Of a stretch of 64,000 bases of DNA, positions 23,253 to 52,222 are shown piece after piece. The notes under the pieces are model-generated. The model made no database searches. It saw only the letters and a list, made by a program, of their open reading frames with translations, and was not told the origin of the DNA. This DNA comes from an uncultured bacterium (GTDB lineage: Bacteria > Patescibacteriota > Minisyncoccia > Phycocordibacterales > Phycocordibacteraceae). A program made the translations under genes and the position numbers. Every line of letters starts with the position of its first letter. Position 1 is the first letter of the stretch. The stretch spans positions 12,581 through 76,580 of the forward strand of contig CALFMK010000003.1 of the NCBI GenBank assembly GCA_937879955.1, read 5' to 3'.

Positions 23253-23270
23253 GAAAGACGGGAAGGGTAG

Positions 23271-23276: not shown

Positions 23277-23285
23277 GGCGGCATT

Positions 23286-25466
23286 ATGAAACAAACCGCC
23301 CGCTGGGTCGCCATCGTCGCCCTGTTCGCCATCCCGTTCCTTCCTTTATACGTATCGAACGAGCTCTTCTTCCCGTTCATAACCGGGAAGAACTTCGCGT
23401 TCCGCATCCTCGTGGAAATCGCGCTCGGCGCGTGGGTGCTGCTCGCGCTCATGGACCGCAAGTACCGTCCTCGCTTCTCCTGGACGCTCGTGCTGTTCGG
23501 GATGCTCACGGCATGGATGGCAGTGGCGGACGCGCTCGGGGTGCACCCGCACAAGGCGTTCTGGAGCAACTTCGAGCGCATGGACGGCTGGGTGATGCTC
23601 ATCCATGTGTTCGCGTTCTTCCTGGTCGCCGGTTCCGTGCTTGCGGTCGAGAAGCTCTGGCGGCACTGGTGGATATTCTTCCTGTCGGTAGCGGCGGTCG
23701 TGTGTATGTACGGACTCCTGCAGGTGTCTGGCAGCGCTGACATACACCAGGGAGGCGTTCGCGTGGACGCGTCCTTCGGCAATGCGATCTACATGGCGGT
23801 GTATTTGATGTTCTCGATACTGGTCGCTGGATGGCTCGCGGTGACGTCGAGGAGGGCTTGGGTGCGCTGGCTCCTCGCAGGTTCCGCAGCGCTCTCTCTC
23901 GGTATCCTCCTCTTCACGGCGTCGCGCGGTCCGGTCATCGGGCTCGCTGCAGGTATCGCATCCGCTTCCGTGCTCTGGCTCATGCTCGCGCTCCGTGATC
24001 GCAATGAGAAGAACGTCCTCGGGCTCCGTATAGCGGCCGGAGGCCTCATCGCACTCATCCTGGCCGTAGGAGGATTCTTCCTCATCCGGGATTCCGCGTT
24101 CGTGCAGGGAACGCCGGTGCTCCAGCGCCTCTCGAGCGTCTTCTCGCTGAGCGAGGAGCTCAAGGTCCGCTCCACGATCTGGGGCATGGCGCTCGAAGGC
24201 GTGAAGGAGGATCCGCTCACGGGCTGGGGCCAGGAAGGATTCAATCAGGTGTTCAACAAGTACTACGAGCCGTCGCTTTATGCGCAGGAATCGTGGTTCG
24301 ACCGCGCCCATAACATGTACATCGACTGGATGGTTGCAGGCGGCATACCGGCGTTCCTGCTCTTCGTGGCGATGCTTGCGCTCGGATTCTTCGGCCTCCT
24401 GCGCGCCCCTGGATACACGAGAGCGGAACGCGTCATCCTCGTCGGCGCGCTCGTCGCGTACGCCGTGCAGGCGCTCGTGGTGTTCGACAACCTCTTCAGC
24501 TACGTGCCGTTCGTGCTCCTGCTCGCCATGGCGCATGGCGCAGGCGCCCGTCCGATACAGAAGCTCGAGAGACTGCCCGAGCTCAGGTCCGAGAACAATA
24601 CGATGCTGGCCGCTTCCGGCGTCGCCGTCGTGACGATCGTCACGGTCTGGATGGTGAACGTCCCGAACATGATGGCAGCAAGCCACCTTGTCTATGCCAT
24701 CTCGCCGACGCCGAAGGGCGTGGAGCAGAATCTGAAGCTCTTCGAGAAGGCGCTTTCAGACGGTTCCTTCGGCAGTCAGGAGATCCGCGAGCAGCTCGTA
24801 TCCTTCGCGTCGCGCGTCGTATCGGAAGACAGCATCCCTGACGTGACTAAGCGTATATTCGCGACCTACGCGATCGACGAGATGGGCAAGGAGGTTGCGG
24901 AGTCGCCTAACGACGCGCGGCTCCGCATGCAGTACGCGGGCGCGTTCGATGCGGTGGGGGACAGCGAACGCTCCCTCGAGCAGATAGATGCAGCCCTGGC
25001 CCTCTCACCGAAGAAGCAGGCGATCATCCTGAACCGCGGCTTCAAGCTCTACGAGCTCAAGCGTCCAGAAGAGGCGCGTGCCGCGTTCCGCGAAGCATAC
25101 GATCTTGACCCTTCGTTCGACCAGGTCGCGGCTGCTGCGGCATCCGGCTACATCCTGACAGGCGACGTTGCGGGCGGAAAGGCGCTCCTCATCGAGGCCG
25201 TCGGCACTACGACGCCCGCGAGCGACTCGCTCTTCTACGCGTACTACCAGACGAAGCAGTGGCGCGAGCTCGTCGGCGTCGCACAGGCGCAGGTGCTCGC
25301 CGACAACGGCTCCTCGAAGTCGCGCTTCCGTCTCGCACAGGCGTACGCGGCGTCGCGACGCTTCGACGAGGCGCGCGCGGAGATACTCGCAACAATCAGC
25401 GCGCACCCTGACGCGCGCAAGGAGGGCGAAGCGCTCTTGGCGCAGATCTTCACGCCTGCTCAATGA
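23286..25466 (+). CDS. O-antigen ligase (Wzy_C)-family polytopic membrane protein fused to C-terminal TPR repeats
   Basis: 726 aa; ~11 TM segments incl. LLFTASRGPVIGLAAG (Wzy_C-like); C-terminal ~250 aa with TPR-like A/Y/L periodicity. Confidence 0.6.
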   Translation: MKQTARWVAIVALFAIPFLPLYVSNELFFPFITGKNFAFRILVEIALGAWVLLALMDRKYRPRFSWTLVLFGMLTAWMAVADALGVHPHKAFWSNFERMDGWVMLIHVFAFFLVAGSVLAVEKLWRHWWIFFLSVAAVVCMYGLLQVSGSADIHQGGVRVDASFGNAIYMAVYLMFSILVAGWLAVTSRRAWVRWLLAGSAALSLGILLFTASRGPVIGLAAGIASASVLWLMLALRDRNEKNVLGLRIAAGGLIALILAVGGFFLIRDSAFVQGTPVLQRLSSVFSLSEELKVRSTIWGMALEGVKEDPLTGWGQEGFNQVFNKYYEPSLYAQESWFDRAHNMYIDWMVAGGIPAFLLFVAMLALGFFGLLRAPGYTRAERVILVGALVAYAVQALVVFDNLFSYVPFVLLLAMAHGAGARPIQKLERLPELRSENNTMLAASGVAVVTIVTVWMVNVPNMMAASHLVYAISPTPKGVEQNLKLFEKALSDGSFGSQEIREQLVSFASRVVSEDSIPDVTKRIFATYAIDEMGKEVAESPNDARLRMQYAGAFDAVGDSERSLEQIDAALALSPKKQAIILNRGFKLYELKRPEEARAAFREAYDLDPSFDQVAAAAASGYILTGDVAGGKALLIEAVGTTTPASDSLFYAYYQTKQWRELVGVAQAQVLADNGSSKSRFRLAQAYAASRRFDEARAEILATISAHPDARKEGEALLAQIFTPAQ

Positions 25467-26473
25467 TCCTGATGGAGAACGTGCTGCTATCAGGCCTGAC
25501 GACGCTGCGCGTCGGCGGGCCTGTACGCTATCTCGCTGCATGCGGGAGCGAGAGCGATGTTGTCGAGGCCGTGGCGTTCGCACGAGAGCATGCGCTTGCG
25601 TATCTCGTCCTTGGCGAAGGAAGCAATGTACTCGCTTCGGATGCAGGGTTTGAGGGCGTGGTCATCAGTATGCGCATGCCCGGCATCGAGACGAGCGAGG
25701 AGGGGAATGACGTAATCCTGAAGACAGGTGCAGGTGTGCGCTGGGACGATCTCGTGCGGTACGCGGCAGAGCGCTCTCTCTGGGGCATCGAGAATCTCGC
25801 GGGCATACCGGGCACGGTGGGCGCCGCTCCGGTACAGAACATCGGCGCGTACGGCATGGAGGTGAAGGATACGATTTCCGAAGTCCGGGTGCTCGATACG
25901 AAGACCGGAGAGATCCGCCTGTTCTCGAACCAGGACTGCGCGTTCGGGTACCGCGACAGCCGGTTCAAGCGGGAAGAGGGGCTCATAATCCTTAGTGTTT
26001 CGTTCCGATTAAAGAGAGATGGTACGCCGTCGCTCGGATACAAGGATTTACAGGCGCTCATCGACGCAGGAGAGGACCTCTCTACGCCGACTGCGATCGG
26101 CGAGGCCGTACGCGCCGTACGCGCGCGCAAGTTCCCGGACCTGGCGGTGTACGGGACCGCCGGTTCCTTCTTCAAGAACCCGACGGTATCCGAAGCTGCG
26201 TACGCGGAACTCGTCAAGCGGTACGAAGGAATCCCGGGATTCCCGAACGATGAAGGCGTGAAGGTGCCGCTCGCGTTCGTGCTCGACAAGGTGCTCGGGC
26301 TTCGCGGGCATCGTGTCGGGAACGTATCGCTCTTCGAGGCGCAGCCGCTCGTGCTCGTCGCGTATGACGGCGCGACCGCGGATGAGATCGATGCGTTCGC
26401 GGATGATATCGCGAAGCGCGTCTACGCAGCGACAGGCATTATGATCGAACGGGAAGTGCGAACGTTCGGATAA
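25463..26473 (+). CDS. murB: UDP-N-acetylenolpyruvoylglucosamine reductase MurB
   Basis: 336 aa; FAD-binding LTTLRVGGPVRYL, GEGSNVL, GIPGTVGAAPVQNIGAYG typical of MurB. Confidence 0.85.
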   Translation: MILMENVLLSGLTTLRVGGPVRYLAACGSESDVVEAVAFAREHALAYLVLGEGSNVLASDAGFEGVVISMRMPGIETSEEGNDVILKTGAGVRWDDLVRYAAERSLWGIENLAGIPGTVGAAPVQNIGAYGMEVKDTISEVRVLDTKTGEIRLFSNQDCAFGYRDSRFKREEGLIILSVSFRLKRDGTPSLGYKDLQALIDAGEDLSTPTAIGEAVRAVRARKFPDLAVYGTAGSFFKNPTVSEAAYAELVKRYEGIPGFPNDEGVKVPLAFVLDKVLGLRGHRVGNVSLFEAQPLVLVAYDGATADEIDAFADDIAKRVYAATGIMIEREVRTFG

Positions 26474-32168: not shown

Positions 32169-33083
32169 ATGGTAGACGAGGCGAGAAACCCATATAATTC
32201 AAGCATGGATGAGATACTAATCGAGGGAAGAGTGTTCATCTCGTCAAAGCAAGCGGCCAAGATTACTGGATATGCCAAGGACTATGTCGGCCAGCTTTGC
32301 CGGGAAGGGAGAGTAGACGCACGTCTTGTCGGCAGGAACTGGTATGTTCTCCAGGACTCCATACGCGAGCACCGCTTCGGAAAACCGGAGGAGGATGCCC
32401 ATAATGCCCCTGAAATCGAAACTTCCGCCGCAGAGGATCGTATTTCGACTTGGCAACGGCCTCAGTATCAGGCAGAGACACCGGCATTCGTAGCTGACTT
32501 GGCACCCAAGACGCCGACCACAGCAGCGAATCCTGCCATACAGGACATGCAGTCCGCCTGGAAGGAGTGGTTTGAGGAGAGGAAGCCAACAGCAGCGACC
32601 TTCTCCGGAGAGCACGGTGCTGATAAAAGTGAGGATTTGTTAGTGATGTCGTCTGAAGACTCTGCAAATGAGACAGAGATGATCGAAGAGGTGGAGGAGG
32701 TGGTCATCTCGCACATAACCCAGGAGCCCGTATATGAGTCTCCAGAGCCAGAAGAAGAGAGCAGGGTGGAGTTGCACCGATCGTACGGCTCTAGAATGGA
32801 GCGTGAGAGTGTAAGGACTGATGCGGTACCAGTGGCCGACATTTCTTCCAAGGCCAGCCAGAAGAGAACCGCACGTTTTGAGGAGGAATTCGATGATGAC
32901 CGTAGTGGCTCAGGAATCATGCGTGCAGTGATCGTAGTGGTCGCACTCGCTGCTGTACTCGTTGCTATTGTTGGAACGGGTAATGCAGAACGACTCCTTG
33001 CTGGCACGAGCTTTGACTTCGGGGCACAGAAGAGCGTAATAGACTTTCTCGGTGGAAAGAGCACGTATGAAAGTAGCTTATAA
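32169..33083 (+). CDS. membrane protein with N-terminal excisionase-like (HTH_17-type) domain; paralogous N-terminus to the giant gene at 33548
   Basis: 304 aa; ISSKQAAKITGYAKDYVGQLCREGRVDARLVGRNWYV aligns (~50% identity) with ISTKDASALSGYNADYLSRLCRAGKIRGEQVGRAWLI of the next gene; acidic middle; C-terminal TM IMRAVIVVVALAAVLVAIVG. Lower-GC gene; leaderless-type TATAAACT box at 32157. Confidence 0.55.
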   Translation: MVDEARNPYNSSMDEILIEGRVFISSKQAAKITGYAKDYVGQLCREGRVDARLVGRNWYVLQDSIREHRFGKPEEDAHNAPEIETSAAEDRISTWQRPQYQAETPAFVADLAPKTPTTAANPAIQDMQSAWKEWFEERKPTAATFSGEHGADKSEDLLVMSSEDSANETEMIEEVEEVVISHITQEPVYESPEPEEESRVELHRSYGSRMERESVRTDAVPVADISSKASQKRTARFEEEFDDDRSGSGIMRAVIVVVALAAVLVAIVGTGNAERLLAGTSFDFGAQKSVIDFLGGKSTYESSL

Positions 33084-33182
33084 ATACTAGCTATCTCGTC
33101 TCGTATAGAAGAGATTAAAGGTAAGAGGGTGAAAATGGCTGGCGAGAGTAAGGATTCCCAAGCCCACTTACTTAAATAGTAG

Positions 33183-33219
33183 AAAAGAGCCCCGGAACAT
33201 CATTCCGGGGCTCTTTTCT
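33183..33219 (+). terminator. Rho-independent terminator (aaaagagccccggaa-catcat-tccggggctcttttct)
   Basis: Perfect 13-bp stem plus T tail. Confidence 0.8.
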
Positions 33220-33547
33220 GCGCTAAGTATCTTACTCAAACGAATCTATCGTGGGATTTCTAGCCTTACGCGTATGCCAGATTCAAATTTGAAGGCCTTA
33301 TGCAGACATACTTATTTCTTTCTACACATGAATGACAGTAAGTCATGCGAAGCTGCTCGTGCCCCTGACCAAATGAGTCCGACTCGGTCGGTAGTAGAAA
33401 TTTCTTAGAGTTCATCCATGGAAACTTATTCCTGGTCTCGAGCGCACGCTCTCAATGATCGAAGAAGACTATCCCCAAACTCTCGGAATAAATAAGCGAC
33501 AACACAAGCTAGAATATAGGTAATTCGGATATCCGACTCATCGAATC

Positions 33548-36500
33548 TTGAACACGCTCCTTAATGGAAATCTGATCTCGACGAAAGACGCCTCGGCGCT
33601 CTCGGGATACAACGCGGACTATCTCTCGCGTCTCTGTCGCGCAGGCAAGATCCGTGGCGAGCAGGTCGGACGCGCGTGGCTCATCGAGCGCTCCTCGCTC
33701 GAAGAATTCATGGCTACGCAGGTGATGCGCAAGATCGAGCTTTCCGAGAATCTTGCCCGAGAGCGCGAAGAGGAATATCGCAGGATCAACCAGGCCGTTC
33801 CTGAGATGACGGTCCGCATGCAGGACAAAACTGACCATGCGGTGAACACGGTCATGTCCGTGCTCTCGAAGATGCACATGCCTCAGGCGTACCCGGCATT
33901 CGGCGGCCGCGCGGCATCCTTCGCTCTCACGGCGCTCGTGATCGGCGGAAGCACCCTCATCGCCGGCAGCGGGATAGTCGAGAAGACCGGAGTCGCGTTC
34001 ACGCATTTCGCGTTCGAGACGCGAGAGCTCGCGCTCGAGTCAGCCGACCGGACACTCGCTTATGCGCATGAGCGGAACGCGCTTCTCGCTTCGCGCGCGA
34101 TGCAAGAAGTGCGCGTGCACGACCTCTTGCTTGCATCTGTGAATGATGCGCGCGTGGAGACGCTCCCGTCGAAGTTCTCCGCAGGCTTCGAGGCGCTCGC
34201 GACACCGAGAGAGATTCCGGCGATAGCGCTATCGGAAGCGACTCCTCTTACAGATGAGGGTGCGCGCAGAGTGGCACAAGCACGTGCGATCGCGATGGAT
34301 CTCGAGACCGATCCGATCGGAAGCCTTACGCGCTCGTACCTGAGCACGGGTGCGTATCTTGTGCACCAGACTGACGCGGTACTCGCGATGCATCTTGATG
34401 CTACGTATGCGGCAGCCGATTCGATCCTTTCGCTCGGCGCCGGCATCCGTGACGCCTCGAGCCTTGCGGTCGGCGCGTACCAGGACGGCGTCTATGCCTA
34501 CGTGCGTAACGTCGAGCTCGTGCCGCGTACCGTGCTTTCGGTTGCATATGGTATCGGTGATGCGATGGCGACAGGCGTCTCAGGAGGCGTGCAGCGTGCG
34601 CCGGAGCGCTACGACGCGGGGATCATGGCATTCGCGATGCTCTCGCAGGATGCGGGCGAACGCATCGCGCGGGATTCATCCGCGTTCGGTGATGCGTCGC
34701 GAACGGTAGTCACCGCCATGCTCGAGATGGAGGATCGCAGCATCGCTCACGCGGTCGGTTCGAGCCGCGTGGCGTTCGGCGAGGGGCTCGATGCTGTTGA
34801 GTCCGTACCGCCCTCTATCGCGTACGCATTCGGCGGAGGCGTAGATCATCTTACTGCCGCAGTAGCGAGCGCACAGGCTCTCACCGCCTCTCCTTTCGCT
34901 GCGTTCGAGCCGTCCGACCTGCTCGAAGGATTCACGCACGGCGTACTCACGTTCTTCTCGGACGCCGTGACGACTATCGCCGGATTCTTCGGGGGCGAAG
35001 AGACCGGGCTGGCCGTCATCCCGTCAGAAGGTCCGGAGGAGACGTACTCGGTCCCGACGGCCGTTCAGCAGGAAGGAGGAGACACTAATATCTACGAGGG
35101 CCCGGTGACGATCGTGAACAATCATAACGAGTATCCGGCGCTCACATACTCGGGCGTAACGAAGGGGTACGTCGATACGCAACTCACGCTCCTTAACGAT
35201 CGCCTGATACGGAGCATCGATAATTCGCGCCGTGCAGCTAGGGGCGGCACCATCTCAATCAACGGACTTTCAGGTACCGGGCTCACGCTCAGCAATTCGG
35301 CCTGGAACGGCGGCTCGATCGTCGGCGCGACGCTCGATGTGCTCGATACGGCCGTCACCGGAGACCTCACTGCGAGCGGCTCGATCGAATCGAGCACGTA
35401 CATCGCCGGACCGTACGTGCTCGCGACCTCTACGACCGCGACCTCCGCGTTCTCCGGAAACATCGCCGCAGGACGCAACGCGACGTTCGGTACCACGGCT
35501 GCTGACCTGCTCACGGTGAATAGTTCGATTGCATCGCATCTCGTTCCGTCCGCCAACAACGCCTATGACCTCGGCTCCGCCGGTAATTACTGGCGTCGCG
35601 GCTACGTGAACGAGCTCATCGTTAATAACCTCTCCGCTGCATCGAGTTCGATAGGAGGAACGGCATCAAATGTCTTTTCCGTGAATTCCGATAACGCGAC
35701 GAACGATATCGAGGACAGTTCGATACTTTTTAACCGTGGCGTCGCGACTCCGAACGCGCTCATGACGTGGAACGCGTCCATGAAACGATTCGAGTTCAAC
35801 ATGCCGGTCTATTCCGCGGACGGCATCTTCGCGAGCGCGACCACGACCAATCTCATCGCGACGAACCTTTCCCTCGGAGGATCGCAGTTCACGTCGCTGC
35901 TCGGGAGCGGGCTCCAGAATGTCGCCGGCGCGCTTACGGTAAGTACCACGACGCTCGCCGGGAGCTTCTTCTCGCAGGACGGGAACTCGTTCGGTTCCAC
36001 GGCGACGCTCGGTACGAACGACGGCCAGACGCTCCAGTTCGAGACCGGGAACGTTCCACGCATATCCGTGCTCGCGAACGGCAATGTCGGTATAGGTACC
36101 ACAACCCCGCCGAACAAGTTCTCGGTCGTGTCCGGAGGGAACGATGACGGCATCTCCTGGTACAACTCGGTGGATGGCCGGCTTCTCGGGAGGTTCGGGC
36201 AGGAGGCAGGGACTCAGGGACGCATGACTCTCTGGAACGGAGCCTCTCCTGCCATAAACCTGCAGGCAGGCTCGAACTCGAATTTCATAAACGGGAACCT
36301 GATGCTGGGCAGTAATAATGTCGCGGCTAGCAGGCTCGCGGTGAACGGTAGCGCGGCGGTAGGCTCGGGCTACCAGCTCCTTGCCGCTCCGACGAACGGA
36401 TTGCTCGTCGAGGGGAACGTGGGTATTGGCACCTCGAGCCCGTCCTACGTATTCGATGTCCAGGGATCAGGATCGAACCAGGCCCGTATCTCGAGCACGG

Positions 36501-39500
36501 GCACGCTCTATAACATCCTCGATCTCAGCGCGTACGGCACCGGAGGCAACGTGCAGAACATGCTCCGCTTCAACAACGGCGCTTCCACGGCCTGGTCGTT
36601 CGGTGTAAATCAGGCGAACGGAAACGCTCTTACGTTCTCATCCGCCTCGCTACTCACATCGGCTCCGCGCATGGTGCTTACGACCGGCGGCAATGTCGGT
36701 ATCGGAACCACGTCTCCCGCGGTTCCTCTCGATGTCGTCGGTGCCATCCGCTCGAACGCGAGCGGAGGAACGACATACGCCCTCATCGGCGCGTCGGGCA
36801 ATGGTCTCGCCGGTCGTATAACCCTCGGACGCCGTTCGGACGGAGTCACGACGTCGGCGTTCTACGGGACGACCGTAGATGGCGCGAATGATGGTGCCAC
36901 CATCCATTACAGCGGCGGGTCTCAGGCCGCTATCGAGCTCTCTTCCGGGACCATATCCTTCAGAACGAATACCATAGGCACTGAGCGTATGCGTCTCGAT
37001 ACGAACGGCAATCTTGGTATCGGCACCAGCTCTCCATCGCAGCCCCTCACCGTAGCAGGGAACGGTTACCTTACAGGCGGCCTCGGCATCGGTGCCGCTA
37101 ATACCACGGCAGGAAGCGTGCTTGCGACCGGAAATTACATAACCACCGGCACGGGCTCCTATTTCGGAGCAACGACGAACTTCAATGCCTTCATACCGTT
37201 CGATAACGGCGGACGCACCGGCATCAATGCAGGAGGGAGCTTCTACGTGAACCTAGACTCCAATAACGACCAGACGGACCGTGCTTTCATAATTGCGAGG
37301 GACAGCAGCGCGCTCTCGAGCGGTACCGAGCTCTTCCGGATTCAGGAGAACGGCAATGTCGGTATCGGCACGACCACTCCTGATCAGAAACTTTCCGTGA
37401 CTGGCACCATCAAGGCGGAGCGCGCAGGCGGCCTTAAGGGTTCGGCGTTCCTCTTCCCGGCAGTCGGTAGCTCGAATAGCTGGTATGAGGGCCTCGGCTT
37501 CAATGCCTACTTCGACGGATCGAACTGGGTTACGGAGGGGGATGGAGCAAATAACGGCGGTTCGCTCCTCACCAGCTCTACGGCCGGCGGGTTCAGCTTC
37601 TTCAGCATGCCGAGCACCGGAGGTGCGGCCCAGACCATCGCCAATGCCAGTCTCGCGAATTACCAACGCATGACTATTACCTCGACGGGGAACGTCGGCA
37701 TAGGTACCAGTTCGCCTGCCACGAATTTTCATGTCAGTGGCATAGGCACCCAGACATTTAGGCTCGAGAATCAAGGCCTGGGCAATCTTTCGATCCAAGC
37801 GACGGGTGGTGATGGTCGTCTGTATACCTCATCAGGACCACTGCTTCTTCAGCCAAGCACAGGTAACGTCGGCATCGGTACCACCTCTCCGGTCTCGCAG
37901 TTCACCATAGACGGAACAAACTCCGCAGCCTTCCTTACCTATGGAGACACGGGCACCGGTTCCGGAACGTTTACCCTGAATTCGCCGAATTTCTCAACGC
38001 TTTCGCTCAATGGTAATACCGATGGCGCCCACGCTACTGCTAACTCTACGATTCGCCTTACTCTCAATAATGCGAACTACAGCGAGATCGGGCTTGATAG
38101 CGCATATGGGAACGGCTTAAAGCTCTTCACTGGCGAGACCTCTGGGTATGGCGGCGGTTCGGGAATCTTGATTACTCAGTCTGGCAACGTAGGGATCGGC
38201 ACTACTAATCCTGGTTCGACGCTTGATGTATCCGCGGGTGCGAGCGGAAGTGTGAACCAGATACGCGCGACGTTCGGAACGGGAAACGGTAACAGCCAAT
38301 TCGTTGCTAATCGACAGGCCACTTCTAACACTGCAGCCATTACATTCCAGACGAACGGCACGACGGATTGGGCTATCGGTCAGCCGTATTCGAGCCTCGG
38401 GGGCACTGGCTCTGATTTTCACATCTATGAGGCGGGCGCCTCGAGTCGTCTCACCATCCTCAAGTCGACTGGTTATGTCGGTATCGGCACGACGACACCA
38501 AACTATCTGCTGAGTTTAGGTATCCAGAGTGCAGCAAACGTGAATCAGGGCATAAGCCTCGCGAGGATTGCGGGCGGCCAGGAGGCGGTACGGTACGGCA
38601 TACGTTCTGACGCGGCAGGAAACTATCGCGGCTCGATAACGATGACAAACGCCGCCGGCACGCAGGTCGAGACGATGACCTTCAGTCCTGTTGGTAACGT
38701 CGGCATCGGCACTTCGTCTCCGTCCTCGATACTGCATATCGAATCGTCGTCGCCGGTCATAACCGTATACGACACGGCAGGATCGTCTGGTGCTCGGTTC
38801 AACGTAAACGGCCTTGTCGCTGCCGGCAGCCTTGCATACCGGTTCCAGACTGATAGCGGCACGAATACCATCATGTCGATGCTCCGTAATGGAAATGTCG
38901 GTATCGGGACGTCATCACCGACAGGAAGGCTCACGGTCTATCAGTCCGCGTTTACGAGCACCGACGGCATCTATCTCGATAATTCGGGGAATAACTCAGG
39001 CCGTATCTATATAGATTCAGGGGGTGCCCTGAATCTGCAGCGCGGAACCAATACGGGTCAGCTCGTACTCAGTGCAGCAGGTAACGTCGGCATCGGCACG
39101 ACATCTCCTGTGGCAAAGCTTGATGTCGGCGGCCAGATCGGCACGGTTGGATCAGGTATCGGCGCAGGCGCGGGCGTGGCCACGTTCTCAACGAACGTAA
39201 ATAACTCGGCCGGCATCGAGATGCGCAACGCGAGCGCTGCCGGAGGCGCCTCGTTCCGATTCGCCATCTCCGACAACAATGCCAACGACTATCTTGCTTT
39301 CGAGCAGTCGAGCACCGGGAACGGCGGCACCTTGTTCGGTATGACGCGTTCAGGAATTTCCACGCTCTTCACGAACGGAACCGGGAACCGCACGCTTGCG
39401 GTAGGAACGGTGAACGCAGGCGCGGTTGTTCTGGGGACGAGTAACGCGGAGCGTCTGCGCATTACATCCACGGGTAATGTGGGTATCGGTACTTCTTCGC

Positions 39501-40936
39501 CGCAAAATACCCTCGAGCTTTATGCTGGCAATCCTGCTCTCCGCACGACGCTCAGCGGTACTTCTGGCGCGGCCGAATGGATAGCGTACGAAAGCGGTAC
39601 GTATAAGGGCGGTTTCTCTGCATTCGGCAGTACCTATCCAACGACCAGCTGGCGCGATGCGGTCATGCTCACTGCCGCAACCGACAACACCGGTTCCCTT
39701 ATCTTCCGTACTCGTACCGCAGGCTCGTACGCTGAGCGCATGAACATTACTAACGCAGGTAATGTCGGCATCGGTACGACGACGCCGACCGCGCAGCTCC
39801 ATACGACGGGCACGGTGCGCTTCTCGAACTTCGGCGCCGGCACGCTCCAGACCGATGCGGACGGCAACCTGAGCGTCTCCTCCGACGAGCGCCTCAAGCA
39901 GATCTCGGGAGGGTTCGGCCGCGGGCTCGCGGACCTGATGGGTATCAATCCTATAACCTTCCATTGGAAGGCCTCCACCGGCTTCGATACCGTGAACAGC
40001 TACGCGGGATTCAGCGCGCAGAATGTCCAGAGCGCCATACCGGAAGCCGTCGATACCGATCCGCGCGGATACCTCACGCTCTCCGACCGTCCGATCCTCG
40101 CGGCTTCCGTGAACGCGATCAAGGAGCTCAATCTCCGCACGCTCTCGCTCGCGCCGGCGGAGACGAATACGGCAGCGAAGAACCTCGAGGTGTCGGCGGA
40201 CGCGTCCATCGCCGGCGCGCTCTCTGTCTTCGGAAGCGGATCCTTCGCGCTCGGCCTCGAGGCGACGGACGTGCGCGCCTCGCGCGTGCTCGTGCCGAAG
40301 ACAGGCGAGCTGCCGGCCGAGGTCCTCACCGGCGGCGATGCCGACCTCTTCAAGATGGCGGCGCGCGGCATGGCGGACGGCGCCGAGGCGCTGCGCCGCA
40401 CGGACCTCGTCATGGAGAAGCTCGCGACCATCGACCAGCGCCTCGCGGAGCTCGAGGCTGCCGCGAGCGCGCCGGCAGGCATCCCGGTTATCGAGAATCT
40501 CTCAGAGATCATGAGTCGGTTCAGCATCCGCGACGGCATACTCTCGGCCGTCGAGATGGCCGTCGAGCGCCTCACGATCGGCTCTCCTGAGAAGCCGACC
40601 GGCGTCACGTTCTATGACGAGGTCACGGGCGAGCCGTACTGCCTCGCGATACGCAATGGCGCGCAGGTCATACGCGAAGGGAAGTGCGAGGTCGCGAGCC
40701 GCACGGCCCCGGAACCGGCGGTCGTCGTGGACGCGCCGGCGCCGCAGGAGACCGTAAGCACCTCGACCCCGCCGAGCCCGGCTGCCGAGATGCCTTCGCC
40801 ATCGGCCGGAGCAGGCGCGGACGACGGTGCTCCAGAGCCTCCCGCTGAGGTGGTCGAGACGCCTGCAGAGCCAGCGCCCGAGCCGATCGTCACGCCGGCC
40901 GCGGAACCTGCCCCTTCGCCGGAACCGGCCGCCTAG
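33548..40936 (+). CDS. giant (2462 aa) membrane-anchored tail-fiber-like surface protein: N-terminal excisionase-like HTH, one TM, Ala-rich helical region, ~14 'GNVGIGT(T/S)SP' fiber repeats, C-terminal peptidase-S74 intramolecular chaperone domain, coiled coil, Pro/Ala-rich tail
   Basis: Repeats (ANGNVGIGTTTP, TGGNVGIGTTSP, ...) seen in the protein and as periodic ggnaaygtcggnatcggnac in DNA; S74 hallmark SSDERLKQISGGFGRGLADLMGINPITFHWK at ~39881; TM FALTALVIGGSTLIAGSGIV after the HTH-like N-terminus. Confidence 0.7.
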   Translation: MNTLLNGNLISTKDASALSGYNADYLSRLCRAGKIRGEQVGRAWLIERSSLEEFMATQVMRKIELSENLAREREEEYRRINQAVPEMTVRMQDKTDHAVNTVMSVLSKMHMPQAYPAFGGRAASFALTALVIGGSTLIAGSGIVEKTGVAFTHFAFETRELALESADRTLAYAHERNALLASRAMQEVRVHDLLLASVNDARVETLPSKFSAGFEALATPREIPAIALSEATPLTDEGARRVAQARAIAMDLETDPIGSLTRSYLSTGAYLVHQTDAVLAMHLDATYAAADSILSLGAGIRDASSLAVGAYQDGVYAYVRNVELVPRTVLSVAYGIGDAMATGVSGGVQRAPERYDAGIMAFAMLSQDAGERIARDSSAFGDASRTVVTAMLEMEDRSIAHAVGSSRVAFGEGLDAVESVPPSIAYAFGGGVDHLTAAVASAQALTASPFAAFEPSDLLEGFTHGVLTFFSDAVTTIAGFFGGEETGLAVIPSEGPEETYSVPTAVQQEGGDTNIYEGPVTIVNNHNEYPALTYSGVTKGYVDTQLTLLNDRLIRSIDNSRRAARGGTISINGLSGTGLTLSNSAWNGGSIVGATLDVLDTAVTGDLTASGSIESSTYIAGPYVLATSTTATSAFSGNIAAGRNATFGTTAADLLTVNSSIASHLVPSANNAYDLGSAGNYWRRGYVNELIVNNLSAASSSIGGTASNVFSVNSDNATNDIEDSSILFNRGVATPNALMTWNASMKRFEFNMPVYSADGIFASATTTNLIATNLSLGGSQFTSLLGSGLQNVAGALTVSTTTLAGSFFSQDGNSFGSTATLGTNDGQTLQFETGNVPRISVLANGNVGIGTTTPPNKFSVVSGGNDDGISWYNSVDGRLLGRFGQEAGTQGRMTLWNGASPAINLQAGSNSNFINGNLMLGSNNVAASRLAVNGSAAVGSGYQLLAAPTNGLLVEGNVGIGTSSPSYVFDVQGSGSNQARISSTGTLYNILDLSAYGTGGNVQNMLRFNNGASTAWSFGVNQANGNALTFSSASLLTSAPRMVLTTGGNVGIGTTSPAVPLDVVGAIRSNASGGTTYALIGASGNGLAGRITLGRRSDGVTTSAFYGTTVDGANDGATIHYSGGSQAAIELSSGTISFRTNTIGTERMRLDTNGNLGIGTSSPSQPLTVAGNGYLTGGLGIGAANTTAGSVLATGNYITTGTGSYFGATTNFNAFIPFDNGGRTGINAGGSFYVNLDSNNDQTDRAFIIARDSSALSSGTELFRIQENGNVGIGTTTPDQKLSVTGTIKAERAGGLKGSAFLFPAVGSSNSWYEGLGFNAYFDGSNWVTEGDGANNGGSLLTSSTAGGFSFFSMPSTGGAAQTIANASLANYQRMTITSTGNVGIGTSSPATNFHVSGIGTQTFRLENQGLGNLSIQATGGDGRLYTSSGPLLLQPSTGNVGIGTTSPVSQFTIDGTNSAAFLTYGDTGTGSGTFTLNSPNFSTLSLNGNTDGAHATANSTIRLTLNNANYSEIGLDSAYGNGLKLFTGETSGYGGGSGILITQSGNVGIGTTNPGSTLDVSAGASGSVNQIRATFGTGNGNSQFVANRQATSNTAAITFQTNGTTDWAIGQPYSSLGGTGSDFHIYEAGASSRLTILKSTGYVGIGTTTPNYLLSLGIQSAANVNQGISLARIAGGQEAVRYGIRSDAAGNYRGSITMTNAAGTQVETMTFSPVGNVGIGTSSPSSILHIESSSPVITVYDTAGSSGARFNVNGLVAAGSLAYRFQTDSGTNTIMSMLRNGNVGIGTSSPTGRLTVYQSAFTSTDGIYLDNSGNNSGRIYIDSGGALNLQRGTNTGQLVLSAAGNVGIGTTSPVAKLDVGGQIGTVGSGIGAGAGVATFSTNVNNSAGIEMRNASAAGGASFRFAISDNNANDYLAFEQSSTGNGGTLFGMTRSGISTLFTNGTGNRTLAVGTVNAGAVVLGTSNAERLRITSTGNVGIGTSSPQNTLELYAGNPALRTTLSGTSGAAEWIAYESGTYKGGFSAFGSTYPTTSWRDAVMLTAATDNTGSLIFRTRTAGSYAERMNITNAGNVGIGTTTPTAQLHTTGTVRFSNFGAGTLQTDADGNLSVSSDERLKQISGGFGRGLADLMGINPITFHWKASTGFDTVNSYAGFSAQNVQSAIPEAVDTDPRGYLTLSDRPILAASVNAIKELNLRTLSLAPAETNTAAKNLEVSADASIAGALSVFGSGSFALGLEATDVRASRVLVPKTGELPAEVLTGGDADLFKMAARGMADGAEALRRTDLVMEKLATIDQRLAELEAAASAPAGIPVIENLSEIMSRFSIRDGILSAVEMAVERLTIGSPEKPTGVTFYDEVTGEPYCLAIRNGAQVIREGKCEVASRTAPEPAVVVDAPAPQETVSTSTPPSPAAEMPSPSAGAGADDGAPEPPAEVVETPAEPAPEPIVTPAAEPAPSPEPAA

Positions 40937-41995: not shown

Positions 41996-42473
41996 GCTCT
42001 ACATCGCGGCAGACCATACGGGATTCGCGCTCAAGAGCGAGCTCGCGTCCTACGTGCGCATGCTCGGCTACGAGGTTGAGGATATGGGCGCGCACGAGCT
42101 CGTCCCGGATGACGACTATCCGGAGCTCATCACGCCCGTGGCGCAGAAGGTGGTTGAGACACCCGATACGCTCGGCATCGTGATCGGCGGGTCAGGGCAG
42201 GGCGAGGCCATGGCCGCGAACCGCGTGAAGGGCGCGCGCTGCGCGCTCTACTACGGGCAGGCACGGGCGGTCGGCGCGATAGACGCGGACGGCGCGCACG
42301 CGCTCGACGGCTACGATATCGTCCGGCTCGCGCGCGAGCATAACGATGCGAACGTCCTGTCGCTCGCCGCGCGCTTCGTCGAGCTCGAGGACGCGAAAGA
42401 AGCGGTGCGCATATTCATCGAGACGCCGTTCTCAGGCATCGAGCGCCATGCGCGGCGCATCGCGAAGTTCTGA
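41988..42473 (+). CDS. rpiB: ribose-5-phosphate isomerase B (RpiB/LacAB family)
   Basis: 161 aa; LYIAADHTGF, GIVIGGSGQGEAMAANRV. Confidence 0.8.
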   Translation: MHKLYIAADHTGFALKSELASYVRMLGYEVEDMGAHELVPDDDYPELITPVAQKVVETPDTLGIVIGGSGQGEAMAANRVKGARCALYYGQARAVGAIDADGAHALDGYDIVRLAREHNDANVLSLAARFVELEDAKEAVRIFIETPFSGIERHARRIAKF

Positions 42474-42543
42474 TGCGCAAGCACAGGAGAATCACCGCCG
42501 CGTCGCATCTCGACGCGGCGGTGTTCGTATATACTGTTCCTAT

Positions 42544-43269
42544 ATGGGCATCATCGTCCCCGCCGTCATCCCCGCGTCGAGACAGGATCTCGAGGACAAG
42601 CTCGCGCGCCTCTCGGGCCTGTGCGAGGAGGTGCAGATCGATATCGTCGACGGCGTCTACGCGGGTCCTGCGAGCTGGCCGTATACCAAGGACGCGAAGG
42701 ACGAGCCGGCGCGGATGCTCGAAAACGGCGAGATGCTCCCGTATGCGGGATCGTTCCGGTTCGAGATAGACCTCATGAGCCGCGATCCGGAGTCGGTCGC
42801 AGGGACCTGGATCGCGCTCGGTGCCACCCGGCTCACGGTGCATGCGGAGAGCACGCCGTACCTCGGCCAGTTCCTCCGGGATACGCGCGCCAAGTACGGC
42901 CATGAGAAGGACTTCGCCGAAGGATTCCTCTCGCTCGGCATCGCGATAGGCGCGCAGACCGACCTCTCGCTCGTCGAGCCGTATCTCGACCGCATCGACT
43001 ACGTGCAGTTCATGGGCATTGAGACCATCGGTCACCAAGGAGAGCCGTTCTCCGCGAGCGTGCTGCCGCGCATCGCCGCGTTCCGGAAGCAGCATCCCGG
43101 CATGCAGATCACCGTGGACGGGGGCGTCTCAGGCGCGAATGCAGCAGCGCTCCTCGCTGCGGGCGTATCGCGCCTCGTGGTAGGGTCCGCTATCTGGAAG
43201 GCGCCGGACCCTGCCCAGGCGCTCCGCGAGCTCACCAAGCTCACGGAGACGCATGGCATCTACGAATAG
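42544..43269 (+). CDS. rpe: ribulose-phosphate 3-epimerase family protein
   Basis: Start reassigned to MGIIVPAVIPA at 42544 (the ORF-track upstream extension is an Arg/Ser shadow frame); TIM-barrel motifs IDIVDGVY, FMGIETIGHQGEPF, ITVDGGV. Confidence 0.65.
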   Translation: MGIIVPAVIPASRQDLEDKLARLSGLCEEVQIDIVDGVYAGPASWPYTKDAKDEPARMLENGEMLPYAGSFRFEIDLMSRDPESVAGTWIALGATRLTVHAESTPYLGQFLRDTRAKYGHEKDFAEGFLSLGIAIGAQTDLSLVEPYLDRIDYVQFMGIETIGHQGEPFSASVLPRIAAFRKQHPGMQITVDGGVSGANAAALLAAGVSRLVVGSAIWKAPDPAQALRELTKLTETHGIYE

Positions 43270-43270
43270 C

Positions 43271-43783
43271 ATGCGCCGCGGCTTCACCCTCATCGAGCTC
43301 CTCGTCGTGATCGCCATCATCGGCGTGCTGTCTGCGGTCGTGCTCGCATCCCTCAGCACGGCGCGAGCGCGAGCGCGGGACGCGCAGCGATTGAGCCAGC
43401 TGCAGCAGGTGAGAACGTCGCTCGAGAGCCGGTACGCAGAAACCGGAAATTACCCTGGTCATACTGGAACCGCAGGAACCTGTACTGCCGGGAACGTCAC
43501 GAGCTGGAACTCGTCCATGACCACCTTAACTTCAGAGGGCTACCTTTCCGCGATTCCGATCGATCCGGGCGCGCCGGCGGATTACTGCTACCAGTACATG
43601 AACGGAAGACAGACCACATCAAGCAATATCCAATGCGACGGTGTGACCAGGGCGGCGTACGAGTGGTCCATAATCTTCAGGACCGAAGCCGGGCCGCCGA
43701 AAGGGTTCCCGGCTGCCGTCTGGTCGGGAGGAAGCTGGACCACAAGCGATTACTACTGCATGCTCGGGAATCGCAAATCATAA
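43271..43783 (+). CDS. type IV pilin-like protein (prepilin-type N-terminal cleavage/methylation domain)
   Basis: MRRG|FTLIELLVVIAIIGVLSAVVLASL class III signal; start 1 nt after the rpe stop. Confidence 0.75.
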   Translation: MRRGFTLIELLVVIAIIGVLSAVVLASLSTARARARDAQRLSQLQQVRTSLESRYAETGNYPGHTGTAGTCTAGNVTSWNSSMTTLTSEGYLSAIPIDPGAPADYCYQYMNGRQTTSSNIQCDGVTRAAYEWSIIFRTEAGPPKGFPAAVWSGGSWTTSDYYCMLGNRKS

Positions 43784-43837: not shown

Positions 43838-44347
43838 ATGCGGCGTTCAAGCGGCTTCACCCTCATCGAGCTCCTGGTCGTGATCGCCATCATCGGCGTG
43901 CTGTCTGCGGTCATTCTCGCGTCGCTCAGTCTCGCGCGTCAGCGAAGCCAGTACTCTGCAGCCCGGCAGGAGATGACGAGCTTCGTGAAGGCGGTCGTAA
44001 TCGCGCAAGGGGAGGCCGACAAGCCGCTCCGTCTCATAACCGGAGCAGGCTGCTCGCGCTGCCAGTGCACCGCGGGTACCGACCTGCGCGGCGTGGGCGG
44101 CACCTGCTACTCAGCGTGGGTGAACGCGCTCTCGAAGGTACAGCTCGCGACCAACGGCATCGTGCAGAACCTGAACATGCTCCGTGATCCGTGGGGCAGC
44201 CCGTACCTGCTCGACGAGAACGAAGGCGAGCAGGTGGGTAATCCCTGCGTGGCCGATCAGCTCACCACCTACGGTCCTGACGGCATGTCCGGCGGCGGGG
44301 ATGATATCACGATGAACCTGCCGTTCTATCGCGGCGTGTGCCCGTAG
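43838..44347 (+). CDS. type IV pilin / GspG-like pseudopilin
   Basis: MRRSSG|FTLIELLVVIAIIGVLSAVILASL prepilin signal; Cys-rich C-terminal half. Confidence 0.75.
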   Translation: MRRSSGFTLIELLVVIAIIGVLSAVILASLSLARQRSQYSAARQEMTSFVKAVVIAQGEADKPLRLITGAGCSRCQCTAGTDLRGVGGTCYSAWVNALSKVQLATNGIVQNLNMLRDPWGSPYLLDENEGEQVGNPCVADQLTTYGPDGMSGGGDDITMNLPFYRGVCP

Positions 44348-50833: not shown

Positions 50834-52222
50834 ATGAAGAAGCATCAGACACTCATCGCGCTCAAGCCCGTCTTCGCACCGGCCGGTATCCTTGCTGTAT
50901 CGGCGGCGATCGCCATCGCAATCATCTTCCCGTCGCTGCAGGCGTTCGCAGGGTCGTTGCAGTACACTGGGTCGAGCTCATACGTTAATCCGATCGTGAC
51001 CTGCGGCTATGCGTATAACGGTTGGAGCATAGATGAGATTGATACGAACACGTGCGACGACTTCACATGCGACGCGTCCAATAACGGGCGCGGCTGCCAG
51101 ATCATCACCGAGACCGGTACGGTACCGAGCGGCAGCATCGGTTGCGACAACTCGACCGGCTGCGCAGGCGGCGGCATGTACGACCACGTCTGTCGCGTCG
51201 ATTCCTACACCTGCGTTCATCAGACGTGTACCCCGAACAGTTCCTGTGCCGCGAACACCTGCAATACCGGCACCTGCTCGGATTCCTGCGGCAACGTCTA
51301 TGCAGGCACCAAGGATTGCTCGGTGCCATGTACCGCCTCCAATTCCTGCGGCCAGTCCAACAGCGGAACGATGGTGAACGGCGTCTGCAGCGCGAGCGCG
51401 CCGGCGAACCCTGCCGGCTATGGCAACTCCTGCAGCTCAGGCGCGAACTCCTGCGGCATGGTCAACTACGGCAGCATCCAGTGCAACGGAACCTGCTCGG
51501 CATCGACCCCGTCGAACTCGCTGTGCCCGACCCAGCCGACCTGCGTCTCATACCAAGGCCAGTCCTGCTCGGCATCGAACTCCTGCGGCAACCAGACCAA
51601 TTACGGCACATACCAGTGCAACGGCTCCTGCTCCGCCTCGACCCCGTCCGACAGCTCCTGCCCGGCGGCGCCGAGCCCTAGTGTCTCCTGCACCGCCTCC
51701 GCCACGAGCGTCTCCGTGGGCGGCAGCGTCACGTACTCCGCGAATCCGGCAGACGGCGCCTCGAGCCCGTACACCTGGACCGCCGGCGACGGCGGAAGCT
51801 ACGGGTCCGCGTCTACCGCCACCCGCACCTTCTCAACCGCCGGCACCTACGCCATGAACGTCCGGGGCACCAACACGAGCACCTCGTACTGCCCGAACGT
51901 CACCGTTACGAGCGCCGCCGGCGGCTGGTGCACCAGCGCCACCCCGGCCCTCAGCATCACGGCAGGCGCTACGCGCGTGAAGATGGGGCAGAGCACCACG
52001 ATCTCCTGGAGCGCCTCGGGCGTTAACGGCCAGAACGCCTCCTGCACTGTCACGGGACCAGGCGTGGCCTGGACCTCGGCGGTCTCCGCCTCGCCGTCCT
52101 GCAGCGTGCCGTCGAGCTCCTCCTCCGCCACCATCACGGGCCAGAGCACCTATACGCTCACCTGCGGCAGCCAGAGCAAGAGCGTGACGGTTAACGTTAT
52201 CCCGAACTTTACGGAGTTCTAA
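50834..52222 (+). CDS. Cys-rich repetitive surface protein with C-terminal PKD/Ig-like domains
   Basis: N-terminal signal/TM; three ~40-aa repeats CSASNSCG..NYG..QCNG(T/S)CSASTPS (also visible as DNA repeats); PKD motif YTWTAGDGGS...GTYAMNVRGTN. Confidence 0.55.
   Translation: MKKHQTLIALKPVFAPAGILAVSAAIAIAIIFPSLQAFAGSLQYTGSSSYVNPIVTCGYAYNGWSIDEIDTNTCDDFTCDASNNGRGCQIITETGTVPSGSIGCDNSTGCAGGGMYDHVCRVDSYTCVHQTCTPNSSCAANTCNTGTCSDSCGNVYAGTKDCSVPCTASNSCGQSNSGTMVNGVCSASAPANPAGYGNSCSSGANSCGMVNYGSIQCNGTCSASTPSNSLCPTQPTCVSYQGQSCSASNSCGNQTNYGTYQCNGSCSASTPSDSSCPAAPSPSVSCTASATSVSVGGSVTYSANPADGASSPYTWTAGDGGSYGSASTATRTFSTAGTYAMNVRGTNTSTSYCPNVTVTSAAGGWCTSATPALSITAGATRVKMGQSTTISWSASGVNGQNASCTVTGPGVAWTSAVSASPSCSVPSSSSSATITGQSTYTLTCGSQSKSVTVNVIPNFTEF

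Follow-up and report, generated by a model that had tools for sequence, protein, structure and literature searches.

What is a gene that joins an excisionase-like helix-turn-helix (HTH) domain, a transmembrane (TM) helix and a phage-type tail fibre in a single chain doing among the housekeeping genes of a bacterial chromosome? We examined this question for a stretch of 64,000 nucleotides (the window) of contig CALFMK010000003.1, from an uncultured member of the Patescibacteria, or candidate phyla radiation (CPR). The gene occupies positions 33548–40936 of the window on the forward strand, stop codon included, as a single uninterrupted open reading frame (ORF) with a TTG start, and encodes a protein of 2462 aa (the giant protein). 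The nearest in-frame stop upstream is at 33521–33523, this TTG is the earliest start codon after it, and homologues start at the equivalent residue (ATG or TTG, with Met or Leu aligned with the start of the giant protein). The answer that we consider probable, though well short of certain, is that this is a chromosomal, lineage-conserved Patescibacteria gene for a type II membrane-anchored, S74-matured and most likely trimeric fibre for episymbiont adhesion.

Architecture of the giant protein

A first-pass annotation of the window had read the protein as an HTH, a TM helix, an Ala-rich region, GNVGIGT repeats, an S74 domain and a Pro/Ala/Glu-rich tail, and this order was borne out by Pfam searches, hydropathy and composition, with both Pfam matches above their curated cutoffs. 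At the N-terminus, HTH_17 (PF12728) matched aa 10–58 (33575–33721) with 28.6 bits against a cutoff of 27, while homologues tested scored 20.8–52.2 bits; the NCBIfam model TIGR01764 was not reached by the giant protein (22.3 against a cutoff of 28.8). An AlphaFold2 (AF2) model of aa 1–160, built from a six-sequence alignment, had a predicted local distance difference test score (pLDDT) above 90 over aa 9–80 and showed a beta-alpha-alpha-beta-beta winged helix. It was continued by a helix at aa 48–106 (33689–33865), predicted with high confidence up to about aa 80, rich in Glu, Arg and Lys and placed so that it would space the HTH from the membrane, and by a lower-confidence helix at aa 120–140. 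In a Foldseek search against the PDB, the top match for the HTH was the Xis protein of mycobacteriophage Pukovnik (target-normalised TM-score 0.71–0.72, root-mean-square deviation 1.7–3.4), and further top matches were TraN (a DNA-binding protein of a type IV secretion system, T4SS), RacA, BldC, RdfS and Tn916 Xis. All of these are DNA-binding domains of the excisionase or MerR type, with E-values that are modest (0.01–0.3) because the HTH domain is small. Across 131 homologues the HTH core is basic (median isoelectric point, pI, 9.4), and Y, D, Y, R and R in the second helix as well as G-R-x-W in the wing are near-invariant. The basic core and the invariant arginines point, if indirectly, to DNA binding by this domain, which is predicted to be cytoplasmic.

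The sole strongly hydrophobic, uncharged stretch of the N-terminal region is aa 122–144 (33911–33979; AASFALTALVIGGSTLIAGSGIV; Kyte-Doolittle value 1.79), and an equivalent segment lies at about residue 100–190 in 135 of 139 sufficiently long homologues. Counted over 15 residues on each side of this helix in 131 homologues, Lys plus Arg averaged 2.66 on the N-terminal and 1.34 on the C-terminal side, with more on the N-terminal side in 92 homologues and fewer in 7 (p = 6e-15), which, by the positive-inside rule, favours an orientation with the N-terminus inside and the C-terminus outside. No cleavable signal peptide was recognised within the first ~40 residues, as judged from the AF2 fold and hydropathy; the first 60 residues are confidently predicted to fold as an HTH, and the N-terminus is thus not a signal peptide. 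The initial reading of this end as an HTH plus a TM helix rather than a signal peptide therefore holds, a folded HTH being followed by a hydrophobic segment from residue 122 that, from its sequence, would act as a signal anchor.

Beyond the membrane, the juxtamembrane region at aa 146–560 (33983–35227) contains 16% Ala, is net acidic and carries recurring Y-x-x-G-V-x-A-[YFW]-V motifs. Its identity among orthologues is 25–38%, a profile search against PDB sequences found no relative of it, and it is probably a helical stalk. It leads into a "neck" or fibre base at aa 561–820 (35228–36007), the most conserved of the segments predicted to be extracellular; aa 561–1010, which include it, showed 37–76% identity across loci in tblastn searches. 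The shaft proper, at aa 822–2110 (36011–39877), carries repeats of the form GNVGIGT(T/S)(S/T)P. Where about 14 irregularly spaced repeats had been expected, a regular expression counted exactly 14 G[NY][VL]GIGT motifs within aa 845–2071, at intervals of 58–131 aa. As had also been proposed, they are visible in the DNA: the pattern GGNAAYGTNGGNATYGGNAC occurs 14 times in the window, always within the giant gene, against 0.02 occurrences expected by chance. At the DNA level the repeats are 30–44 nt long and 61–83% identical; being so short and diverged, they must be old and maintained at the protein level, and a recent DNA duplication or an assembly artefact was ruled out as their origin.

Profile and sequence searches placed the shaft among known fibres. 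In PHROGs, the repeat region matched two "tail fiber protein" families (9942 and 18345, at 1.3e-49 and 2.1e-32), and tblastn against GenBank phages returned 30 records at 25–32% identity, among them annotated tail fibres of Thermus phage phiFa and Synechococcus phage S-B28, as well as Pelagibacter phages. When aa 2001–2462 and aa 561–1010 were compared with PDB sequences by phmmer, the only matches were crystal structures of the "cell wall surface anchor family" of Bdellovibrio bacteriovorus (8ond/Bd2133, 8.5e-9; 8oml, 4.7e-6; 8ojn, 3e-4 and 2e-3; 8ol4, 3e-3; also 8on4), in alignments that span the ERMxI...GNVGIGT..P motif. The combination of GNVGIGT repeats with S74 had been taken for a hallmark of phage tail fibres. 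Phage tail-fibre families do match, but the combination is not confined to phages, since the cellular mosaic adhesive trimer (MAT) fibres have both.

The Peptidase_S74 core (PF13884) spans aa 2112–2168 (39881–40051) and scored 33.5 bits against a cutoff of 22 over profile positions 1–57 of 58, while scores in homologues were 54.7–93.5 bits. The catalytic Ser-Lys dyad is present as S2112-D-E-R-L-K2117 (SDxxxK), with GFSAQ downstream, and in an alignment of 14 S74 regions of the family S, D, K, G..AQ and P are invariant. A family S74 profile matched solved domains of a phage tail fibre (8jov, 3.3e-15), the phage S16 long tail fibre (6f45, 6.4e-13), MYRF (7dc3, 4.8e-11) and the GA-1 neck appendage (3gud, 3.9e-4), so that the description of a textbook S74 domain is apt. 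From this domain and its homology, we infer trimerisation-dependent self-cleavage with Ser2112 as the predicted scissile residue.

Behind the core, a long extension (40052–40933) follows. A bare S74 chaperone domain measures ~150 aa; in 20 full-length proteins (19 homologues and the window protein), the fragment C-terminal to the Ser is 345–592 aa long, and 351 aa in the window protein. It holds a conserved helical segment compatible with a coiled coil (~aa 2261–2308; a weak match to the DUF7310 coiled coil) and ends in a tail (aa 2361–2462) of 22% Pro, 21% Ala and 13% Glu. The same 20 proteins showed no conserved hydrophobic peak or second TM helix after S74, which ruled out a second TM helix of the kind MYRF has there. 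Six homologues (P0013, P0018, P0043, P0094, P0099 and P0122) have an extra GxIGIGT repeat past the cleavage site together with a second, degenerate S74-like module (...LRLGxIAE...), and two of the six, P0013 and P0043, end in a Bact_surface_Ig-like domain. Given these repeat, S74-like and Ig-like modules past the cleavage site, the C-terminal fragment may serve a separate function once released.

A fixed locus and a mosaic shaft

Homologues with the same order of HTH, TM helix and fibre, which the first-pass annotation had suggested looking for in CPR genomes, proved to form a large family. A profile hidden Markov model of aa 1–160, searched exhaustively against 1.84 billion cluster representatives, matched 6899 of them at E ≤ 1e-3, 1449 at E ≤ 1e-10 and 91 at E ≤ 1e-30. 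Word-indexed searches with the N-terminus gave only 5 and 11 proteins, and it was the exhaustive search of representatives that made the family visible. Among the best 151 matches, on which the counts of length, repeats and motifs are based, 62 have 1000 aa or more, 41 reach 2000 aa and 17 reach 4000 aa; the longest has 7275 aa. GNVGIG-type repeats occur at least three times in 45 of the 151, and 19 have an SDxxxK motif 345–592 residues before the C-terminus; the full architecture is found in at least 19 other clusters. Many of the short members are probably fragments at contig ends. In Pfam searches, three full-length members showed the same pair of HTH_17 and Peptidase_S74, two of them with a Bact_surface_Ig-like domain added at the very end. 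Four other long members have the HTH and no recognisable outer domain, so that the HTH–TM module seems to serve as the anchor for giant outer regions of more than one type. In their source records, members of the family are called "tail fiber domain-containing protein", "helix-turn-helix domain-containing protein" or "hypothetical protein", and several of the proteins are encoded on contigs of 0.1–0.67 Mb.

To place the gene, one genome per GTDB species was scanned with two peptide patterns taken from the N-terminal module. The scan gave 35 loci, all in metagenome-assembled genomes (MAGs) labelled Patescibacteria, Paceibacterota, Parcubacteria or, probably loosely, Saccharibacteria. The guess that the DNA came from an episymbiont-like CPR cell thus agrees with 35 of 35 related loci, and the source of the window, with a GC content of ~62%, is a high-GC member of the CPR lineage that carries the locus. 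The window gene order is Wzy/TPR, MurB, SecA, Obg, GatB, a 304-aa ORF, the giant gene, GAPDH, RpiB and Rpe. The statement that the gene sits between gatB and gap is correct for GAPDH downstream and for GatB on the upstream side, but a gene of 304 aa (32169–33083) separates gatB from the giant gene. The succession SecA, Obg, GatB, small protein and giant gene is kept in about 30 of the 35 loci, with SecA 57–85% identical to that of the window. The giant ORF extends beyond the 10-kb flank in most of the loci, where the giant protein must therefore be longer than 3400 aa. Phage and integrase genes are missing from the surroundings of the giant gene, and no viral contig in IMG/VR (zero) encodes the N-terminal HTH–TM module. 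Housekeeping synteny in about 30 genomes and the lack of viral contigs with the module confirm what the window by itself had indicated, namely that no phage genes adjoin the gene and that it does not lie in a prophage.

The flanking genes and the start of the giant gene are conserved together, and the shaft is not. Between loci L002 and L004, SecA is 95%, Obg 97% and GatB 92% identical; the giant protein is 81–86% identical over its first 1000 residues, and then 19–35% over the remaining 2500. The same pattern of a conserved proximal part and a divergent shaft appeared in the pairs L002/L005, L004/L005 and L002/L006. When the window protein was cut into 100-aa tiles and compared with long homologues, the N-terminal 600 aa were most similar to P0007 (37–83%), the neck to P0008 and P0011 (70–84%, for the tiles at aa 601–800), the S74 core to P0008 (79%) and the C-terminal tail again to P0007 (74–80%), while the best matches of the shaft tiles came from ten different proteins at 32–58%. 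By these comparisons, the ends of the giant protein are conserved and its middle is shuffled, with the C-terminal part mosaic too. Such a pattern is typical, by analogy, of phage receptor-binding proteins and of the "tip swapping" of MAT fibres, and a hypervariable mosaic shaft argues for an outward-facing recognition role over a purely structural one.

Other arrangements of the giant gene were seen in a few loci. Giant fibre genes stand in tandem in some genomes. In L036 (1–18712), a gene of more than 3752 aa that includes S74 and an Ig-like domain is followed by a 540-aa HTH–TM gene and then by a gene of more than 2137 aa, and in L034 (1–1758), the C-terminus of one giant gene precedes the HTH start of the next. 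In L026, the HTH–TM ORF ends at 764 aa and fibre repeats appear further downstream, before GAPDH; this may be a split gene or a frameshift.

Partner gene, upstream element and neighbourhood

The 304-aa gene directly upstream (32169–33083, forward strand), which was characterised by translation and comparison of orthologues, encodes a second HTH and TM protein. Its HTH (GYAKDYVGQLCREGRV...VGRNWYV) is paralogous to that of the giant protein, with the common pattern GY..DY...LCR.G......VGR.W; the HTH_17 match is weak (20.2 bits), and NCBIfam gave just a very weak MamR-like match (E = 0.011). In the small protein of the window, an acidic linker of ~166 aa (net charge −21) leads to a TM helix at aa 250–268 (Kyte-Doolittle value 2.99) and a tail of 36 aa. 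Orthologues have linkers of 140–210 aa with net charges of −10 to −31, TM helices with values of 2.1–3.3 and tails of about 25–48 aa, mostly 30–37. This architecture was kept in 23 of 23 orthologues, each encoded directly upstream of a giant gene. The partner family comprises 1170 proteins at E ≤ 1e-5, all about 280–310 aa long and unnamed or labelled hypothetical, and the members with an organism name are all labelled Patescibacteria. The GC content at third codon positions is 0.55 in the small gene, 0.71 in the giant gene and 0.8–0.9 in the flanking housekeeping genes; the lower values of the two genes fit fast evolution or relaxed codon selection.

Between the two genes lies an AT-rich intergenic region (33084–33547; GC 0.43 against about 0.62 for the window) with a terminator-like hairpin at about 33187–33218. 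The equivalent spacer is about 410–1070 bp long in the loci measured and has a GC content of 0.32–0.44 in the ten loci computed. At its downstream end, a cis element (TAGAATATAGGTAATTCGGATATCCGAC; 33510–33537, forward strand) combines a −10-like hexamer with a perfect palindrome of 12 bp behind it (TCGGATATCCGA; 33525–33536); this palindrome occurs once in the window. The element ends 10 nt upstream of the TTG of the giant gene and abuts the ATG in many loci. Its consensus is TA(G/A)AAT-N5-TAATTCGG-N4-CCGAC, in which the half-sites are invariant and the central four bases variable, and it is conserved at the same position across L001–L034, with the exceptions given below, including between loci whose proteins are only about 50% identical. 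In 568 kb of sequence (the window and the loci), TTCGG-N4-CCGAC occurs 31 times, 29 of them directly upstream of an HTH-giant start. Judged from its sequence and position, the element may be a promoter-overlapping operator or a 5′-terminal RNA hairpin. Co-variation between palindrome and HTH was sought, and both the half-sites and the HTH residues proved invariant where present. In L008, L017, L032, L035 and L036, the motif is degenerate or absent and the HTH signature residues are kept, which lends no support to binding of the palindrome by the HTH. Most loci also have a single DnaA-box-like YTATCCMCA at −68 to −93 (mostly −69 to −81). The corresponding site in the window (~33466–33474; CTATCCCCA) is two bases off this consensus. 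A replication origin in the AT-rich spacer was ruled out, since one DnaA-like box per locus, and none within one mismatch in the window, is not an origin-like cluster.

The wider surroundings are rich in surface and contact genes, notably pilin-like genes and a glycan cluster. Downstream of Rpe lie two pilin-like genes, a split transketolase, PfkB and a class I aldolase. Three small proteins encoded on the forward strand (43253–43783, 43838–44347 and 55560–56057) have an N-terminal methylation motif of the type IV pilin kind, and two of these genes lie 2.3 kb downstream of the giant gene. Also on the forward strand, a PKD-domain protein (50834–52222) is followed by one with an SLT_2 lytic-transglycosylase domain (52303–53637), and either protein might act on cell surfaces or on the walls of a host. 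On the other side, a large cluster for surface glycans and the envelope (~7574–26473) contains an epimerase, six GT1/GT4 glycosyltransferases (one of them weak and below threshold), a C-methyltransferase, a UDP-glucose dehydrogenase, a flippase, a Wzy_C and TPR protein and MurB. Its part at 16–22 kb has a GC content of 0.53–0.55, against ~0.62 for the window, which may indicate horizontal acquisition. A lone gene for a TrwB/VirD4-like type IV coupling protein (5790–7574, forward strand) precedes this cluster. We rejected a link of the fibre gene to a T4SS, given just this one coupling-protein-like gene 26 kb away, followed by glycan genes. The cumulative GC skew has its minimum at ~6–8 kb of the window and may mark a nearby replication origin; according to a preprint, a position close to the origin is common for T4SS genes in CPR. 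The longest ORF of the ribulose-phosphate 3-epimerase (42346–43269, forward strand) overlaps RpiB by 128 nt, and its Pfam match begins at residue 135, so the true start is probably further downstream. The only Rfam match in the window is a tRNA-Thr.

Competing explanations and known systems

If the giant protein is an adhesion fibre, its parts could work together as follows. The winged HTH and the long charged helix would remain in the cytoplasm, aa 122–144 would stay in the membrane as an uncleaved anchor, and about 2300 residues would be exported. Chaperoning and self-cleavage by S74 are established for endosialidases, phage T5 pb1 and the Bdellovibrio MAT fibres. Here, the C-terminal S74 domain would nucleate trimer folding of a beta-helical GNVGIGT shaft from the C-terminal end and would then cleave itself off at Ser2112, leaving a membrane-rooted fibre. 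The proximal third (HTH, TM helix, stalk and neck) would serve as cell-side attachment, the conserved C-terminal fragment would assist folding or export, and the variable shaft would recognise surface structures of a host or prey, most likely glycans, which would make the protein an episymbiont's equivalent of phage receptor-binding fibres and of the MAT fibres of Bdellovibrio. The HTHs of the giant and the small protein would hang on long tethers below the membrane and bind DNA, the nucleoid or a shared cytoplasmic partner. Scaled from MAT figures (about 550 Å for Bd3182 and about 150 Å for 370 aa of Bd2133; PMC10769870), the fibre would be very roughly 60–110 nm long, and the largest relatives several-fold longer. 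The proposal of a host-attachment fibre in the first-pass annotation gains indirect support from the MAT-like repeats and the hypervariable mosaic shaft, and adhesion itself is the part of it that we infer.

Several observations weigh against this account. The HTH_17 match clears its cutoff by just 1.6 bits and some homologues fall below it. The charges flanking the TM helix are equal in the window protein itself (2 against 2), so that its topology rests on the statistics of the family. An AF2 model of aa 146–600 from five homologues was all-helical, with a pLDDT of 37 that makes it unreliable. The 350–590-aa extension past S74 is without counterpart in known S74 fibres and unexplained. Some of the relatives show conservation of the ~30 residues that lead up to the cleavage site, so that specificity would have to lie along the shaft and not at its very tip. 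The low identity of the shaft may be partly exaggerated, since unequal repeat numbers may misalign. Finally, the strictly conserved chromosomal position suits a structural role in the envelope equally well.

This last point leads to the alternative of a constitutive envelope or architectural component, such as a coat, a spacer or a cell–cell tether, whose HTH would be coupled to a nucleoid or cytoskeletal partner in the manner of RacA or RodZ and which would not be a host-specific adhesin. A fixed place among housekeeping genes near secA in about 30 genomes would be natural for such a component, as would the high conservation of the proximal third and the C-terminal tail, the constant presence of the small partner protein (23 of 23 orthologues) and the appearance of RacA, a chromosome anchor, among the fold matches. 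It accounts poorly for a shaft that is hypervariable and mosaic and for a length of 2000–7275 aa, the signature of a protein facing a changing external ligand, and the closest characterised relatives are receptor-binding fibres; we regard it as unlikely. The fixed position bears differently on the idea that the gene is the remnant of a prophage or mobile element, in which a domesticated tail-fibre gene became fused by chance to an excisionase gene. HTH_17/excisionase and S74 tail-fibre modules are indeed both typical phage parts, and the third-position GC of the giant (0.71) and small (0.55) genes lies below the 0.8–0.9 of their flanks. However, the neighbourhood is devoid of phage and integrase genes, the flanks are the same in about 30 genomes with SecA 57–85% identical to the window's, viral contigs with the module number zero, and a TM helix, needless for an excisionase, follows the HTH in 135 of 139 homologues. 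A remnant of this kind is very improbable. An ancient phage origin of the fibre module is likely, and concerns its ancestry rather than the present nature of the gene.

A further explanation starts from the other end of the protein and sees in it a contact-sensing, membrane-tethered transcription factor like ToxR or CadC. The fibre would be the sensor, engagement of a host would alter DNA binding by the HTH or release the HTH by intramembrane proteolysis, and the palindrome before the gene would be the HTH's own operator, allowing autoregulation. The HTH is well suited to such a role, with its basic core (median pI 9.4), the invariant Y/D/Y/R/R of the recognition helix, the Arg in the wing and nearest folds that are all DNA-binding proteins. 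Sitting on a ~60-residue helix, and in the paralogue on a 140–210-aa linker, both HTHs could reach the nucleoid, and the gene-specific 12-bp perfect palindrome overlaps the likely transcription start. Against this, the loci without an intact motif (the same five, L008, L017, L032, L035 and L036) keep the HTH signature, and the centres of the half-sites lie just 8 bp apart, a short distance for an HTH that binds as a dimer, while excisionase-type HTHs usually bind direct repeats as monomers and a trimeric fibre would present three HTHs. Moreover, S74 cleavage takes place on the far side of the membrane and, unlike in MYRF, cannot free the HTH, and target genes are not known. We consider a regulator of this kind quite unlikely. 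A speculative extension of the adhesion fibre, which we hold to be unlikely as well, takes the trimeric contact fibre, its three HTHs and the HTH of the small partner as one signalling or anchoring device that reports host contact to the chromosome, perhaps via the palindrome, or moors the nucleoid under the attachment site. If true, this device would represent a new class of membrane proteins, confined to CPR bacteria, in which DNA binding is coupled to a surface fibre.

The adhesion fibre, which remains the reading we favour, matters because the ways in which CPR bacteria find and hold their hosts are largely unknown beyond type IV pili. A 2024 perspective on Patescibacteria mentions just unspecified putative adhesins, and a recent survey of CPR T4SSs reports no PrgB-like adhesins in its CPR dataset. 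The family offers a concrete candidate for host adhesion, in the form of giant, hypervariable, tail-fibre-like fibres rooted in the cell membrane, and the conserved locus makes their genes easy to find in MAGs. Should host range depend on the shaft, shaft sequences could help to predict the host specificity of CPR bacteria or to compare it between their lineages, as for phage receptor-binding proteins. A cytoplasmic HTH anchor on a fibre is unprecedented, and its ligand is directly testable.

Comparison with known systems shows how far the architecture departs from them. Full-text searches of literature on Patescibacteria and CPR, which left out most subscription-journal papers, turned up no description of it, and a giant-gene survey of predatory bacteria does not cover a combination of HTH, TM helix and fibre. 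The claim that this is not a described architecture stands, as far as these searches reach, for the full arrangement and has to be narrowed for its cell-side half, as an HTH, a TM helix and an extracytoplasmic part follow one another, in principle, in ToxR/CadC and RodZ. Like the giant protein, these proteins begin with a cytoplasmic HTH, cross the membrane once by a TM helix and end in an extracytoplasmic part, and they illustrate that such an HTH can act on DNA or, as in RodZ, whose HTH binds MreB, on a protein partner. They differ in their OmpR-type or XRE-type HTHs and in having small outer sensor domains in place of a 2300-aa fibre, and no sequence relationship was detected. Trimeric autotransporter adhesins and the giant "periscope" adhesins are functional analogues, in that long, repetitive stalks of variable length present binding sites; their folds, secretion routes and anchors (an outer-membrane beta-barrel or LPXTG) are unrelated, and no homology was detected.

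MYRF is, to our knowledge, the sole characterised protein that combines a DNA-binding domain, S74 and a TM helix, and it likewise has the self-cleaving trimerisation domain and the other two parts in one chain. In MYRF, the order is DNA-binding domain, ICA domain (S74) and TM helix, the first two lie on the same side of the membrane, and cleavage frees a transcription factor. In the giant protein, by contrast, the TM helix stands between HTH and S74, which are about 2000 residues apart, so that S74 cleavage cannot release the HTH, and the DNA-binding-like domain is an HTH_17 rather than an Ndt80-like one. Phage S74 fibres (K1F endosialidase, T5 pb1, the S16 long tail fibre and the GA-1 neck appendage) share the S74 module, its catalytic motif and the repeat families. 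The giant protein differs from them in lacking domains for attachment to a baseplate or tail, in its membrane anchor and in its housekeeping neighbourhood, and it belongs to no virion.

The closest system is the MAT family described by Caulton et al. 2024, with 21 paralogues, 13 of which end in S74 with SDxxxK (PMC10769870). MAT fibres are displayed on the surface of the predator and have a trimeric beta-helix and prism structure; self-cleavage of their S74 domain has been demonstrated (Bd3182, S782), and one member binds a glycan (PMC10769870). All 21 have a signal peptide and a conserved, beta-rich N-terminal domain of ~130 aa that docks to an unknown surface element (PMC10769870). Like the MAT proteins (e.g. 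Bd3182), the giant protein would be a cellular fibre of a bacterium living on other bacteria; it has similar GxVGIGT-type beta-helix repeats and a C-terminal S74 chaperone and protease with SDxxxK, and it shows mosaic evolution with variable distal parts. It differs in having a cytoplasmic HTH_17, a TM helix and a helical stalk of ~415 aa in place of the MAT N-terminal domain, with which it was compared by description. It is also 2–7 times longer, with 350–590 aa past the S74 cleavage site, and is encoded by a single gene at a fixed locus instead of 21 dispersed paralogues, in a monoderm-type CPR bacterium. Each module, then, is known by itself, with MAT as the closest system. Novelty lies in the anchoring by an HTH and a TM helix, in the length of the part that follows S74, in the small protein encoded alongside, in a constant locus that has a cis element to itself, and in the presence of such a gene in CPR bacteria. 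On this comparison, the MAT principle, by which cells borrow phage fibre modules to recognise bacteria, would extend to a second and very different lineage.

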